Assembly (NCBI RefSeq): GCF_006345805.1
Contig: NC_043015.1
Span: 9,672,001 to 9,736,000 of the forward strand
Source of the DNA: Octopus sinensis
Taxonomy: Eukaryota
DNA: 64,000 bases
Reading direction: 5' to 3'
Below are positions 6,880-50,485 of the stretch, one piece after another. A program made the translations under genes and the position numbers. The notes beneath the pieces were generated by a model, which saw only the letters and a list, made by a program, of their open reading frames with translations, did not search any database and was not told the origin of the DNA. The number at the start of each line of letters is the position of its first letter. Positions within the stretch are counted from its first letter, which is position 1.

Positions 6880-7540
6880 CAATCGTCTTGCTCGCTTACG
6901 TTGTGACGTTTGCTGATCTTTGGTGAGAACAATCTTTTCTTAATGGTCAGACACTATGGGGTCTACATCTAGCATATTGGATGTCCACTTAGCGGTCATC
7001 CCTCTGTTATGTATGAAATATAATTTTTCTAAATCTTCAGATTTTTTCAAGATGCTAGGCCACAGGTTTTAAATTGATATTAATCAAATTAATATTGAAT
7101 TGTTCACCCTTATTATTTAAATTTAAATAACCATGTTCTCTATCCGGCAAACTTCACTGCAGCAAATACTTTTCTACATAATTATTTCCGGTATTTTGGC
7201 GTGCCAACACGAAGACTCTTGAAATATAACCTCAAATGTAATTGGTAGAACTATATACATGTTCACTCACATGTGGACATTTCGTGTATAGTACTGCAAA
7301 TCATATTTTTCTAAGACGGTCACATCGATGAATTGCGGACATTTACGTATGTATTACGTAAGTGTTAATAATGAAATCGAGTATGACTAATCTTTATATT
7401 TTGTATTGTTTCATTTGCCTTGCTTGCTTACGTTCAGGCGTTTGCTGAATTGTCTTGAGAACAATCTTTTCTTAGTGGTAAGACCATACGAGGTCTACAT
7501 CTAGCACATTGGATGCCCACTTAGTCGTCATCCCACCTAT
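6880..7540 (+). mobile_element. Penelope-like non-coding element with ~130-bp direct repeats (pLTR-like) and a degenerate hammerhead
   Basis: 6885-7005 is repeated at 7417-7535 (..gagaacaatcttttctta..ggtctacatctagca.attggatg.ccacttag..gtcatccc). Hammerhead-like motif at 7319-7387. Confidence 0.55.
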
Positions 7541-10274
7541 ATGAATGTTATATATATATATATATATATATATACATACATACATTTACAAAAATATGTA
7601 TATGCATATACGCAGAAGCTTTCGTGCACGCATATATCCGTGCGTATGTATACATGAATACGTATAACATAAGCCGTGTATTGTACTGCGTGTATGGTAG
7701 ATGTGACTCATGAGTTTCAATATTTGTCTGAGAATATAATTCTGAGCATGGTGAGTTAGGTCTATCGGGGTAAGTCCTCAAATTACGTTGGAATAAAAAG
7801 TGTGAATCGTGAGTATAGTGTGAATACTAGTGTGTGGGGGGGGGTGAATAACTGAGTGATGAGAAATATGTGCGACTTAGAGAAAGGTGAAGTCATATTT
7901 ATCCCAGCTGCATGGCTATTGATATCTTCATGGTGAGTTTTCTTCCATTACACATCCGAGATAGAATAACTGTTGTTCTATAATCCAACAGAACGATATG
8001 TGGATAAGAACAGGCAGGAATTAAATTAGCAGTACAAAGGCCTGATTGACAGCGGTCGTTTCTCCTCATCACCTAATCTTCATCCAAATTATCCTAATTA
8101 AGATATATCACAGAAACATCATTTAATATAGATAACAATTTTAGTCGTAGATTATTGGCATGGATTTGCGGTCCAACTGTAAGTACAAGTACAGAACAAT
8201 ATCAGTGTGCAGTAAAATAACTTCTTTAGAATAATTGAGAAATGGAATGGGATTGTTCTGTTATCTGCAATATGGACGTTAATATAATTACTGGGTGACA
8301 GTGTTAAACAGTGGTGTGTATAAATACAAACGTGTTATCTTTTGAAATAAGCTTGAGGTTTTACCGCACCCGTAAGAAATCCATTCACTGTATTTTGTGA
8401 TGGAGAAAATTTCTCGCTGTCGATAGAAAGGTGTAAACACACCGATTTAATTTGCAGCAACACCGATCGGTTGGTAGTAACAAAAAAATACGAGGAAACA
8501 GTCTTAAGCAGTGATGTAATTGTTTTATAAATTTGGCAGGTTCATCAATAAAGGATAAGAAATTTTAATAAAATTTAGTTATTTCAGTATATGTTCTCTT
8601 TTATTTCAGCCTAATTAAATCAAAATTTGAAGCAATTGAAAACTAGCAGCCAATCAATACAATAATGAACTTGTTCGTTCGCTCGTTATATATTACCTAA
8701 TTAGAGAGGGGGGAACTGGAGTGAGTGAAATGTGGAGTAAGAGTGACAGAAAGCGAAAGAAGGAGGAGTGAAGAAAGAAGAGAGGAAGTAATAAAGAGGA
8801 TTAATATTGATACACTTAGGTCAAATGGTCACATGGTCAGTTGAAAGAAGAGGAGAGGAATGGGAGAAAAAGAAGACGAGGGAAAAGAGGGAGAGAGAAT
8901 TGCTAACGACATGCGATAGGGTGGGGAATGAACAATTATTACGTGTTTGAAAGGTTAGATGAATGGAAAGTTAGATAGAGATAGATGGCTCGGGGACGCA
9001 GGTATATTGAGAGAGAGAGAGAGAGAGAGAGAGAGAGAGAGAGATCAGTGGTTGTGTAGATAGTGGTTGTGGTGTGTTGATAGCGAAAACTTGTTGCTCT
9101 TTTTATAGAACTATTTTTTTTTAATATCACCCATCGCTTAAACCATGCATATAAGCTTAGCAATCTTCATATTTGTTAATAAGAGTTAATTTAGCCTAAA
9201 CATTGTATTCGCAAGAAAAACGGTTGCAAGCCGCCCGAGAAACCACGAGGAGATCTAGATCACAGGTCAGAAAATATAATAAAAAGACGGAAAAGACAAC
9301 AGCGACGAAGGCGTGAGGAAATGAATGTAGACGAGCGTCAAGAATATTTAAAAGTTAAACTATGAATGTTATAAAAATGCAACGTAGTTTTCTTAATTTT
9401 CCATCCCGTGGAACTTTCACTAGTTTTCATAAATCTGTTAATACTTACATTTCCCCTATAATACAGCTCACAAAGCACGTTTCCACCTTTAAATATTAAA
9501 TGTCTTAAACATTTTTATATATATGCAGGATGAATTGAACTTTGAAAATCACGTGTATTACACATAAAAATCGTAATATTTACGTGATAGCATGACACAA
9601 TGTGCAGGTATTTATAACAATTGTTTACAAATTTGCGCCATCAGTTCTCCTATCAAAAAATATATGTGTTTCACCGCAGTTTTAAAAGAATTAAATTTAT
9701 AGGAATTCTTAAACATTTTCACATATTTCCTGTACTATTTAGTAATGATTTTCGAATAAATAAACTATATCATACACAAAATATGAACTTGGCACAGCCT
9801 GAATTGTCACCATATTTTTAAAATCTAAATATGAATTTCGTTCGTCATTCTTCGAGAAATGTCATGAACGTGAGTTACTTCCTACATATCCGTATGATTT
9901 CTGCTATACAGCTCTAAAAATATCCAAGTGTGAAGTCTGTATCCATATGAATAAGCAAATATTCTACGTCTACAGCACGCACCATTTTTTAAAATTAGTT
10001 ATTATGTATCTTATTAACCAGATATTCGTCTAGAAATAAATTTCTCGGTTGTATATGTGTATATACGTATACGTTTTGTCATCTGATAATTTTCATTCGT
10101 ATACATTTTTCTACATTTATTCGCACAAACACAGTTTAAGACTTCTCAATATGAATTCTCAAATCACATTATACTTCAAATATTTAGGCTGCATTTTTAC
10201 TATTTTAAATAGATACTTTACTCACAATAGTTCAGGAGTACAGTCTACGATACCCAAAATTGATTACTATGTTA

Positions 10275-12089
10275 CTAGCTGACGTACCTTGTGATACACG
10301 GGAGGGGGGATAATCCAAGTACCCATTACAATGCCTACTTTCTCTCAGACGGAAAAGGGAATCAAGACATAGGACAGATAATATAAGGCATAAACAAATT
10401 CATTCACAAAAATATTAATGCAAATAAATACGTGTGGAATCGGAAAATGACGATCATTTGGTCAGATGAGTGGAGAGTTTCAAATATATAATCAATGGAA
10501 ATATGAAGAAAGGAACTGTAAAGGAGTGCTATGACGAAACGAACTTAAAGGTTTGCAAAATAAAAAGAAAATTTCTTTAGAGAAAAGGCACTTAATGTCA
10601 GGACTGTGTTACATGCGTATATTTCCACTTGGCCTGAGAATAAAATATCGACTGCAACGGTTAGGTCCGACAATTCTAAGTACAGGTGTTAAGAAAATAC
10701 ATGTTACATGTTTTAGAAAACAGCGTTGCAGCGTTTAGAATAGATAATTTTAAGTGAAGGTGTTAAGAATGTACGTGTTACAGCAACCTCACAATGCTGA
10801 AATAATTGTTGAACGTTTTTGGCCAAATTTCGTTAATCAGTTTATCAAAAATAATCTTACGCTTTGCTTGAGTGGCCTAGGTAAAATTATACTTGTCTCA
10901 TACCATCCTTAGTACATATTCCATCTGTGTATATACTTTGGAGAAAATGAAATTCGGTTGAAAGCTTTAACAGTTATACCAGAAAATAACATTCATATGA
11001 GAATTTGTATCGAAATGGCCCATTGATTTTTGAAAATCCGATGCTGATTAAAAATTATCGATGTTTTTGAAATTCCAAGTCCTAAGTGATCACATGGGCC
11101 TAAGCCCCACACACGTTTCATCAAAATCGGTTGGATAATCTCGGCGGAGTTAAAGTAACAAATTCACAAACACACATACCACACCCCAATGGTGGATAAG
11201 AAGTCCCGACTTTCTTAAGTATGTTGAGGCTCACATAAGAATATCCCCCGTCTTAAAAGAGCCATCTAAGAATCTGAAACGTCTATGAGAGTTACGGTTC
11301 ATGTAGTAACTTAACGCTAATCTGAACTCCAAAAGTATTCGCAAGTTAAGAGGAGGTATACCGATAAGTTACATCGTATATATAAGTAGTAGTTTGTATA
11401 AATGTAGTTTGATTGTCAGTATATATATATGGTTATGCATGAAATATTGAATAGAAAATTCTTGAGAAACAAAATGCATTTTCCTATTTAAAACTTAAAA
11501 TGCTGTGGAATTAGATCAACGAATTGAAATAATAAGTTTTAGCAAAGGAAAACGATTTGTATTTGCAAACGCTAATGAGATTACTGTTCATAGGATGTCT
11601 GTTTATACCTATGAAACATTTCTCTTCGAATTTCTGCATTTTTCGTCAAATGGAAATATATGTTAATGAGTTAATTTAACAAAAAAAAAAATACCAGAGT
11701 CTGGTAGCGAATCCATGTCGTCGTCGTTTTTGTGCGTGTGCGTAAATAAATATTTTTCCCCAACCCATCCTTAGCGCATATTTCCTCTGTGTATAAAATT
11801 GCAAGAAAATAGGTTGAACATTTTAAAAGTTATTCCAGAAAAAATTCATTCATAAGAGGATTTGCATTGGAATGCCCTACTGATTTTTGAAAAATCAATG
11901 TTGATTAAAAATTATCGTTTTATTGAAATTCTAAGAACGTAAGTGACTTCATGAGCATAAGACCCCCACCCACCCCACATGTGTCAGGTTTCATCAAGAT
12001 CGGTTGGAAAATCTCAGAGGAGTAAAAGTAACAAATTCCCAATCACATACATCCATAAACAGACAGAAATTGCCATTTATGCATACAGA
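10275..12089 (-). mobile_element. Non-autonomous Helitron-like element with an internal ~280-bp duplication
   Basis: The minus strand starts A|TCtgtatgcataaa followed by GTCT-like repeats, and ends with a weak hairpin plus CTAG|T at 10275. 10903-11180 and 11766-12055 are diverged direct repeats. Confidence 0.55.
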
Positions 12090-49610: not shown

Positions 49611-49901
49611 ATTTGCGTATCTAACAAGAAGAGATAATAATCAAAGAAACGATTATTTTATGAACTTCATTAGCTTGCTGCTTTTTCCGATCTAACAAGC
49701 AGTGGCACCATGTTCCTTCATCAGAGATTGGAATTCAACTATGAACCCCTTATTTCCTAAGTTTATTCAATTATTGGCTTCTTCTCTCCCTACCAGTCGC
49801 TACTCGACGAACAGTTCGTTCAGAGCCGTAAGTACATTGATTTCTAGAGACGGATACTACAATGCCTAGGTATATATATATATATATATAATATATATAT
49901 A

Positions 49902-50485
49902 TATAATTAATTAATAAGGGTGAGAGAATTAGATACTAATTTAATAGTATATTTATTCCACACCAAGGCCTAGTGCTAAAATTATAATAATCCAGGTTTC
50001 TCATAGCACTAGGCCACTTGGTGTGGAATAAATATACTATTAAATTAGTATCTAATTCTCTCACCCTTATTAATTAATTATAATTATGCTGCATTTATTT
50101 CTAAATGCTGTATTTGTTTCCGTGAGAGTTTTGGCGCGCTGTTGGTTGGGGCATTTGAATTATAACGTCGGTTGTAATCAATTGAACCACACGCGTATTT
50201 ATCGTTATGGTAAAATCTGGCGTGTGATTGAGTGGATTTCATCCAGATAGTCTTGGCTGACGAGCTACAAATGGATTATTGTAAGTAATATTACATTTAA
50301 TTCATTAATAGCGAAACAATTGTCCCAAAATAATCTGTATTTTTGTTATTTTTTATTTGCCCTGTCCGTGTGAGCTAACAGTCGTACTTGGCTTTCATGG
50401 GAAACATGTATTTTCGTGGTTGAAACCTTTTGGATTAACTGGTGCTAGAGTGATCAATATAGTGACCACTCTCTTATATTTATTT
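49902..50485 (+). mobile_element. Penelope-like non-coding element with an inverted 5' end and a hammerhead, between (TA)n tracts
   Basis: Perfect 66-bp inverted arms 49902-49967/50017-50082 plus an inner stem gcctagtgcta/tagcactaggc. Hammerhead at 50253-50328. Confidence 0.75.
50253..50328 (+). ncRNA. Type I hammerhead ribozyme motif (appears intact)
   Basis: ttgg CUGACGA gcta..tagc GAAA caattg UC ccaa. Helix I ttgg/ccaa, helix II gcta/tagc, palindromic helix III CAATTG, GUC cleavage triplet. Confidence 0.85.

Follow-up and report, generated by a model that had tools for sequence, protein, structure and literature searches.

The window, i.e. the whole stretch of 64,000 nucleotides from Octopus sinensis that was analysed (contig NC_043015.1, positions 9,672,001 to 9,736,000), contains nine hammerhead-like motifs. 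We confirmed that they are parts of eight repeat families: three related families of small non-coding tandem units (A, B and D), the tail ends of two coding Penelope-like elements (PLEs; H and F) and three others (C, E and G). A preliminary description of this DNA had given the coordinates of all nine motifs correctly, and every one of them falls in a multi-copy family with a family-conserved type I hammerhead. The features are collected in Table 1.

Table 1. Hammerhead-bearing repeats and related PLE remains in the window. Site 1 and site 2 are the two alternative 3' ends of a unit.
Positions	Strand	Family	Feature
6877..7540	+	D	Partial tandem with a period of about 532, made up of a site-1 part, the tail (7005-7120) and a unit whose site-1 end adjoins (TA)n
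7319..7387	+	D	Hammerhead, damaged in window copy; family core CUGA(U/C)GA, covarying helices I and II
14813..15048	-	H	Left arm, pseudo-LTR, hammerhead partly deleted, ends at site 1
15050..15331	+	H	Right arm comprising hammerhead 15182-15216 (AUGAAUA core, A3-U8) and the tail; site-2 end
15374..15639	-	A	Left arm: unit truncated at its 5' end, including the hammerhead; site-1 end in (TA)n
15524..15587	-	A	Hammerhead: helix I CCAUG/CAUGG; CUGAUGA with an additional A; helix II branched, helix III palindromic; triplet GUA (N17 at 15529)
15642..15725	+	A	Right arm with nothing but the tail; site-2 end in (TA)n
32494..33620	+	G	Long non-coding stretch, SINE-like repeat inserted at about 32800-33170; hammerhead 33300-33437, GUA triplet
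37712..37903	+	F	3' end of Neptune-type PLE; hammerhead 37772-37803, family-fixed U6, damaged in window copy
47280..47480	.	E	Fold-back with hammerheads 47418-47456(+) and 47409-47371(-) flanking AGCT; the long arm has the site-2 end and the short arm the site-1 end
47995..48570	.	C	Two arms back to back, carrying hammerheads 48059-48151(-) and 48283-48382(+) with the family's GUU triplet; ends approximate
48609..48790	+	F	Second copy, more decayed, absent from the preliminary list
49905..49978	-	B	Left arm with a portion of the tail; site-2 end in (TA)n
49978..50486	+	B	Right arm, tail read-through and unit, ends at site 1 into (TA)n
50253..50328	+	B	Hammerhead: CUGACGA, GCUA/UAGC helix II, CAAUUG palindrome, GUC triplet (N17 at 50324)
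55198..55790	-		Decayed Hydra-type PLE linker and GIY-YIG region; own pseudo-LTR absent here

The motifs had initially been sorted into intact and degenerate ones. Among those called degenerate, the motifs at 7319, 37772 and 48283 are indeed damaged copies, whereas those at 15182, 47418 and 33300 are typical of their families. The motifs at 48059 and 48283 are both present but form the two arms of a single insertion, and the motif at 47418 has a mirror copy on the other strand. Both shared terminal motifs were recovered, CTAG(A/G)CCAC at 7055, 15671 and 50009 and the second, with at most two differences, at 6970, 7503 and 15415-15383(-). A position beside (TA)n had also been claimed, and a (TA)5 or longer run lies within 15 nt of 13 of the 15 unit ends checked. 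A scan with the Rfam model Hammerhead_1 (RF00163) returned a single sub-threshold match, at 48057-48153(-) with 21.6 bits (E 1.4), and thus no hammerhead in the window at the gathering score of 34 bits; a long helix II and core variants score poorly with it. In descriptor searches, the first strict version recovered only the 50253 motif and three unrelated matches in the window, whereas a relaxed version, composed after the motifs had been seen, found 6 cores compared to a mean of 0.5 and a maximum of 3 in 30 block shuffles.

Families A, B and D have non-coding units of 510-532 bp with one type I hammerhead each, repeated head to tail with periods of 510, about 530 and about 532 bp, and up to 11 such units occur in one arm of an insertion. 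Tandem Repeats Finder reported none of the arrays because of its period limit of 500. The insertions consist of a partial tandem and an inverted 5'-truncated copy with a tail at one end, and their targets are AT-rich or (TA)n DNA. The proposal of several distinct non-autonomous ribozyme families is supported for A, B and D, but the three are related and form a single homologous group whose alignment is collinear across the whole unit. This anatomy supports their assignment to non-LTR retrozymes or non-autonomous PLEs. Copies of family B, with up to 11 units per arm, are 95-100% identical, and the family is very young. Family B contigs were also present in four sequencing runs, whose RNA origin is a guess; one contig of 563 nt closes head to tail, which tandem DNA explains equally well, and these contigs were therefore left out of the evidence.

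A PLE reading frame joined upstream was found in 0/32 loci for A, 0/49 for B and 0/29 for D, in samples that favour full units, and in none of 332 loci covering 1.32 Mb; one weak neighbouring match lies 640 nt away. No autonomous PLE with A, B or D ends was present among the four coding families sampled, a set that does not include the Naiad and Poseidon types. The three families are likely to borrow the reverse transcriptase (RT) and endonuclease of another PLE. The candidate proposed for this role, the remnant at 55203-55790, does contain a PLE endonuclease region. However, we rejected its family as the driver, as it has its own hammerhead and 3' ends unlike those of A, B and D; at 69-80% identity among copies it is also old. 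A B-like tail behind a Hydra-like PLE (L308) was considered as a missing link and discarded, since it lies inside the TA tract that follows a complete insertion with both site-2 and site-1 ends.

For H and F the picture is different. An RT/GIY-YIG frame lies upstream of H on the same strand, at about 230 nt, in 15/20 loci, F was found downstream of RT in 25 of 30 RT loci, and an RVT_1 match was obtained. H and F are the pseudo-LTR ends of protein-coding PLEs; their description as non-coding units is not supported, and they are the PLE LTR fragments that the preliminary description had named as the outcome speaking against it. For C, E and G an upstream RT/GIY-YIG frame on the same strand was seen in one place each and probably belongs to a neighbour. 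For 6 of 56 cores of family E there is a parent element that is longer and non-coding; at L267, where E lies beside a coding PLE, a joined element was rejected because the PLE is a neighbour on the other strand.

That H and F proved to be stumps of this kind suggests the same for the small units: A, B and D might be detached pseudo-LTRs of unsampled autonomous PLEs (e.g. Naiads), amplified locally as satellites by unequal crossover. Naiads with a (TA)n preference are listed for Octopus species and lie outside our search, the searches scored the best 40 candidates and favoured full units, and growth of satellites from PLE termini is proposed by Li et al. 2026. We nevertheless consider this quite unlikely. 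All long copies have another unit or an opposite arm upstream of the unit, and the joined frame was missing throughout the 332 loci. The arrays are furthermore scattered over many contigs, precisely bordered by site 1 and site 2 and uniform over the two arms, which is what insertion of each array as a whole would produce.

The two 3' ends of each unit are about 90-125 nt apart, and many insertions consist of two arms pointing apart, one with a site-1 end and the other with a site-2 end. Of 75 back-to-back insertions, counting those of autonomous families, 74 showed this mixed pairing (p = 2e-21 against a proportion of at most one half). For family A it was seen in 18/18 insertions and for family B in 19/20 by script, the exception being a poor-quality internal segment of L114, the outer ends of which are again one of each; three further B insertions were all mixed (3/3). 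For family D, where 29 loci were examined, 5/6 were mixed at a tolerance of 16 nt and 8/9 once three site-1 ends running 19 nt into TA were accepted, with one insertion (L128) ending at site 1 on both sides. The D site-1 probe sequence is a hairpin and matches both strands. Among autonomous elements we counted 21/21 for the Hydra-like family and 4/4 for the two-frame family. The tail measures about 90-125 nt in A, B and D and about 70 nt in the Hydra-like family. Variants are common to the arms and units of a single insertion, with 0.0039 substitutions per site within an arm and 0.0052 between arms compared to 0.0118 between loci.

The origin of tandem and mirror-image PLE insertions is an open question according to Craig et al. 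2021. Arkhipova et al. 2013 proposed self-priming, in which one cDNA folds back and copies itself, and the endonuclease could then trim one arm and thereby remove its tail (Craig et al. 2021). Palindromes do occur at some junctions: E always folds near AGCT and L081 at an A/T palindrome. For 33 of 59 insertions, the sequence of one arm might be wholly included in that of the other. In the remaining 26, however, neither arm contains the other, one having the tail and the other 5' sequence that is missing from the first, and no fold-back copy is possible; these comprise 9/18 A, 6/20 B and 11/21 Hydra-like insertions, and the A copy of the window is itself such a case. The E junctions also vary slightly among copies (L010, L198, L312 and L363). 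Self-priming as the sole route is excluded, and with subsequent trimming we regard it as very unlikely. The mixed ends and the non-nested arms together therefore favour twin target-priming, and the mirror-image insertions are likely to reflect both broken DNA ends being primed from two fixed sites on the element RNA.

Our main reading, to which we assign a probability of roughly 0.7, is that A, B and D are non-autonomous members of a set of eight hammerhead-bearing families with Penelope-type anatomy, and that they insert at a double cut whose two DNA ends prime at different sites. The PLE protein, probably as a dimer, would bind RNA that is uncleaved and either multimeric or circular, and both strands of a TA tract would be cut. 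Copying would start at site 1 from one DNA end and at site 2 from the other. Each copy would halt at a variable position, up to 11 units along, and the two would then be joined with minimal overlap or none. Where one copy was lost or very short, a single-arm insertion would result, and H and F would be 5'-truncated stumps of coding PLEs made by the same route. The DNA fits a circular and a linear multimeric template alike and cannot tell one RNA from two RNAs of one source locus. A more specific version has, in our estimate, even odds. Here twin priming would be obligatory and asymmetric, with the dimer subunits seated on two fixed sites of one RNA and each priming from one side of the double-strand break, so that the tail equals the distance between the sites. 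The two-site signal, each a CUAG..CCAC..CUUA-like motif with a hairpin, would suffice for a non-coding RNA to be copied over as many as 11 units, likely in a rolling fashion on a circle made by the hammerhead. In support of the main reading, an anole PLE is reported to cut both strands in vitro and to use two adjacent RNA start sites, and is predicted to be dimeric (PMC11167929).

Helix II is long and branched in A, B and D. PLE hammerhead variants are reportedly also treated by Lunse et al. 2016. C3-G8 was kept in 28/31 A, 28/28 B, 18/19 C and 17/20 G loci, A3-U8 in 43/45 H loci and U6 in 45/45 F loci, where position 7 is free; U3-A8 covariation was present in L269 and L286. Core conservation is only modestly above that of the flanks (e.g. 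0.985 compared to 0.953 in A). The dimeric hammerhead fold is the minimum-energy cofold for A and H, and the minimum-energy fold of B, as monomer or dimer, is not a hammerhead. With a short palindromic helix III the hammerheads would be predicted to cleave as dimers, and by analogy with known retrozymes we infer that they may serve to make unit-length or circular RNA. A period-2 variant pattern, the signature of a dimeric circle, was not found. In line with an uncleaved template, 5' ends coincided with the predicted cut in 0/49 B and 0/47 A compared to about 1 expected.

The A, B and D hammerheads could instead be inactive relics kept by descent, with the two priming sites sufficient for mobility. 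Uncleaved multimers evidently get copied, most D and C copies carry a GUU triplet, and an anole PLE with a dead hammerhead is reported to insert normally, its hammerhead requiring protein. We find this unlikely, as the core letters are retained in the family copies while the helices were rewritten between A, B and D. Where the pair of core positions 3 and 8 is swapped, its pairing is preserved. Compensatory changes also occur within families: helices I and II covary in D, where the first pair of helix II alternates between A-U and G-C (7 vs 9 of 18), and helix covariation is seen in A too.

The kind of element is already known, as are tails 'at one end only', and hammerhead families are themselves expected in such a genome. 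Metazoan non-LTR retrozymes are likewise non-coding, repeat head to tail and carry a single type I hammerhead in each unit; they coexist with PLEs and are thought to use their machinery (PMC7229834; 10.64898/2026.07.22.740005). Their units measure 170-400 nt (Cervera and de la Pena 2020, PMC7229834) or 51-972 bp (Li, Clavereau and Pollet 2026, 10.64898/2026.07.22.740005) as given there, compared to 510-532 bp here, and in the text available neither paper deals with a cephalopod or mentions TA targeting, arms lying back to back or a pair of priming sites. Xenopus retrozymes showed no cleavage in 8 of 9 tested, which counts against the main reading. Canonical PLE insertions (Arkhipova et al. 2013, PMC3846280; Craig et al. 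2021, PMC8557442) share partial tandems, an inverted 5'-truncated copy, a tail at one end, (TA)n targets and a hammerhead in the terminal repeat, and H and F are ordinary cases of them. Their tails are 30-40-bp long, however, shorter than those counted here, and the published remark that the tail is 'often at one end' contrasts with a near-strict counted rule. The anole Poseidon element PAc (Frangieh et al. 2024, PMC11167929) shares two adjacent internal start sites flanking the tail, AT-rich DNA cut on both strands and a predicted dimer, but the study reports that the strands do not differ in start site and, in its available text, does not pair the two sites of a single insertion. MRC1 and other non-autonomous Chlamys elements (Craig et al. 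2021) are also non-coding PLE parasites with multicopy head-to-tail insertions; unlike A, B and D, for which we found no such partner, their 3' end resembles an autonomous family, and they have no canonical hammerheads. Minimal PLE hammerheads share the extra base after A9, the short palindromic helix III and the U3-A8 covariation, and an A6C variant is reported to have low activity; the family-fixed A3-U8 of H and U6 of F did not appear in these sources as available (Cervera and de la Pena 2014, PMC4209133; Perreault et al. 2011, PMC3088659) and may be in print elsewhere.

In the literature searched we found no report of such elements in cephalopods, though supplementary lists or Repbase may include cephalopod families. 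The near-strict pairing of ends and the non-nested arms provide a genomic test that favours twin priming and tie the two-site result obtained in vitro to real insertions. Family B, very young and with a small RNA on which both sites are mapped, is a suitable substrate for an in vitro assay. Movement of retrozymes by PLE machinery was previously based on co-occurrence and terminal similarity, and the insertion anatomy provides direct evidence for it.

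All of the nine or so hammerhead-like motifs that the preliminary description had counted in the window could be located in its sequence (9/9), and they belong to eight repeat families, A to H (table). The genome comprises 2.72 Gb, and the window has a GC content of 27-46%, many microsatellites and SINE-like repeats which we take, by their look, to be of the octopus type. Hammerhead_1 was matched once in the Rfam check of the window, weakly, at 21.6 bits and E 1.4. A relaxed descriptor, composed after the motifs were known, found 6 cores compared to a mean of 0.5 and a maximum of 3 across 30 block shuffles. 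The families are a stronger test of the motifs than these descriptor counts, and the hammerhead features of the window are real.

Features of the window and of loci retrieved elsewhere in the genome (L numbers). Candidate totals are from a first look and are not copy numbers; identities are to the window copy among the 40 matches scored per family search.
Feature	Position (strand)	Candidates	Identity	Remarks
Family A hammerhead	15524	1403	mostly 91-95%	
Family B hammerhead	50253	1074	95-100%	full-length matches
Family C hammerheads	48059, 48283	487		
Family D hammerhead	7319	1902	81-87%	
Family E hammerhead	47418	336	100%	over 143 nt in 40/40
Family F hammerhead	37772	3491	86-91%	
Family G hammerhead	33300	673		
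Family H hammerhead	15182	1657	89-91%	
A/B/D insertions	6877-50486			three in 64 kb
PLE remnant	55198-55790			matches Hydra-type PLE protein, E 2e-8
Second PLE remnant	35622-35851 (+)			decayed Hydra-type linker/GIY-YIG, E 4e-6
LINE-like RT fragment	44000-45622 (-)			5' end repeated as a 230-bp inverted copy, like a twin-priming inversion outside PLEs
Arms of LINE-like inversion	45151-45380, 45393-45622			97% complementary
Hairpin-like element	about 47770-47975			long inverted arms, between E and C
Further non-coding hammerhead family	L011:100-1000 (-)			A-like tail, back-to-back arms
Parent of E	L267:1390-1420, L364:1490-1520			pyrimidine-rich stretch closing in UAG directly before helix I

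Families C and G are older than the others. The C3-G8 pair of the core was kept in 28 of 31 A loci (U3-A8 in two, a local duplicate pair), 28/28 B, 18/19 C and 17/20 G loci. The match to the commonest letter was 0.936-1.000 at core positions versus 0.893-0.993 elsewhere, and was higher for the core, modestly, in all six families tallied. The helices of A covary, with 98.8% of the cells paired and 4 pairs altered on both sides in nine hand-picked sequences, as do those of D (94.4% paired, 11 cells altered on both sides, 18 sequences), both counts being inflated by the relatedness of the sequences. Helix III is short and palindromic in all hammerheads. In two-strand folding the best predicted structure was the dimeric hammerhead for A and H, and not for B; cleavage of hammerhead dimers is reviewed in PMC6765202. 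The H motif had been called degenerate. This is refuted by the presence of A3-U8, a swap that preserves the 3-8 pair, in 43 of 45 loci. Family F shows U at position 6 in 45/45 loci, with position 7 variable. Both U3-A8 and A3-U8 also occur in related coding families, and U3-A8 and a weak A6C were reported by Perreault et al. 2011 (PMC3088659). In three coding Penelope-like elements (PLEs; L275, L276, L279) we observed a hammerhead-like AUGAAUA ... GUAA in place of GAAA.

The non-coding monomers that make up families A, B and D measure 510, about 530 and about 532 bp and occur in dispersed head-to-tail arrays, with up to 11 hammerhead units per arm, i.e. per side of a back-to-back insertion (L081). 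They can be aligned along the whole unit (A-D 60-66% identity), so that of the "several distinct" non-autonomous families proposed earlier the non-coding character holds for A/B/D and the distinctness does not: they form one group. No joined PLE frame was found upstream of 32 A, 49 B and 29 D loci, nor by profile matches across 332 loci (1.32 Mb); full-length PLE proteins likewise gave no joined frame at A/B/D loci and one weak match 640 nt from an A copy. A/B/D are further members of the already known retrozyme-type class, the family being defined by Cervera and de la Pena 2020 (PMC7229834), whose main text contains neither octopus nor cephalopod. Li et al. 2026 (10.64898/2026.07.22.740005) have already argued, on the basis of 31 vertebrates, three insects and one coral, that retrozymes of animals derive from PLEs and are non-autonomous, and 235 Hammerhead_1 matches were counted, without analysis, in the giant squid (PMC6962438). 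Related tails in additional loci (L071, L233, L251, L303, L308) indicate that the group is wider. The loci retrieved for other families, about 1.2-1.4 Mb, held one full B insertion and a few tails, compared to three A/B/D insertions in 64 kb, so the window seems enriched.

The remaining families have different surroundings. Family H represents a coding PLE's pseudo-LTR: RT/GIY-YIG sequence stops about 230 nt upstream in 15 of 20 loci, and RVT_1 was matched as well. Of 30 loci of a Neptune-type RT, 25 have F downstream with matching orientation (counted from a list); H and F are ordinary PLE stumps. The single upstream protein match at each of C, E and G looks like a neighbour. Family E is usually a fold-back of about 200 bp around AGCT (20/20 loci viewed), with junctions varying slightly among some copies, and has a longer non-coding parent at 6 of 56 cores. 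By its sequence the UAG-ended stretch of this parent may resemble a 3' splice site; an intron terminating at helix I has been described for Drosophila Penelope (PMC4209133). The remnant to which the suggested driver was likened (55203-55790) is indeed a PLE, as its protein match attests. A role as driver is not evident for it: its relatives (69-80% identical) have their own hammerhead and termini other than those of A/B/D. Young coding PLEs do exist in the genome, their open frames spanning 717-923 codons and carrying RVT_1 and GIY-YIG, and among the coding PLEs sampled none had A/B/D ends. One very young Hydra-type family (L317, L318, L288-L332) shows many identical endonuclease regions and a 717-codon open frame; the core of its hammerhead is CCGAAGA, with U4 changed to C, and the triplet is GUU. 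In the PLEs at L267, L270, L272 and L273 a separate frame, about 450-500 codons long, lies upstream and overlaps the RT-endonuclease frame; Pfam gave no match to it in the one case searched, and the tails of these PLEs carry CCACGTG. Clade names follow motifs, in part from Craig et al. 2021, and not a tree.

In every family examined we found two alternative 3' ends, sites 1 and 2, both continuing into (TA)n. The two shared terminal motifs described before were confirmed, one preceding site 1 and the other lying in the tail before site 2; tail length is about 90 nt for A, 125 for B, 115 for D, 70 for the Hydra-like and 36 for the two-frame family. Many insertions have two arms facing away from each other, and almost always one arm ends at each site. 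By script, such mixed pairs made up 18/18 for A (31 loci examined) and 19/20 for B (28 loci), where the exception, L114, has an internal low-quality stretch and outer ends 2+1. Three additional B insertions were all 2+1 by eye. For D we counted 8/9, or 5/6 at a stricter tolerance (L128 is 1+1), and for two coding families 21/21 (44 loci, some picked for two close opposite matches, blind to end type) and 4/4 (20 loci). The window insertions of A, B, E and H are each 1+2. Over A, B, D and the two coding families 74 of 75 were mixed (p = 2e-21 against one half, the maximum mixed share under independent end choice).

Arms and units within one B insertion carry common variants (0.0039 substitutions per site within arms, 0.0052 between arms, 0.0118 between loci), and neither arm could be copied from the other in 9/18 A, 6/20 B and 11/21 Hydra-like insertions. 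Self-priming was proposed by Arkhipova et al. 2013 (PMC3846280); fold-back of this kind cannot be the sole route. None of the 49 5' ends in B and none of the 47 in A lay within 5 nt of the predicted cleavage site, with about 1 expected, which rules out strong enrichment only. The sequences show the two ends, their pairing, common variants, non-nested arms, TA targets and hammerhead read-through, and we suggest the following: a PLE enzyme, probably dimeric, would cleave both strands of a TA tract, one DNA end would be primed at each of the two RNA sites on an uncleaved multimer or circle, and the two copies would be joined at their far ends. Sites 1 and 2 each show a hairpin and, loosely, the pattern CUAG..CCAC..CUUA; its spacing is unequal, so a duplicated binding signal is hypothetical. 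Minimal PLE hammerheads, U3-A8, a circle model and opposite-strand hammerhead pairs 100-700 bp apart were described by Cervera and de la Pena 2014 (PMC4209133). For an anole PLE, Frangieh et al. 2024 (PMC11167929) demonstrated two start sites and cleavage of both strands, and found the hammerhead to be dispensable. Our search, with most subscription papers and Repbase outside it, found no published account of cephalopod retrozymes or of A3-U8 or U6 hammerhead families; nor, with most subscription papers outside, did it find one of a counted end-pairing rule. The counted two-site rule is what this analysis adds, and it renders a long-standing question about PLE integration testable.
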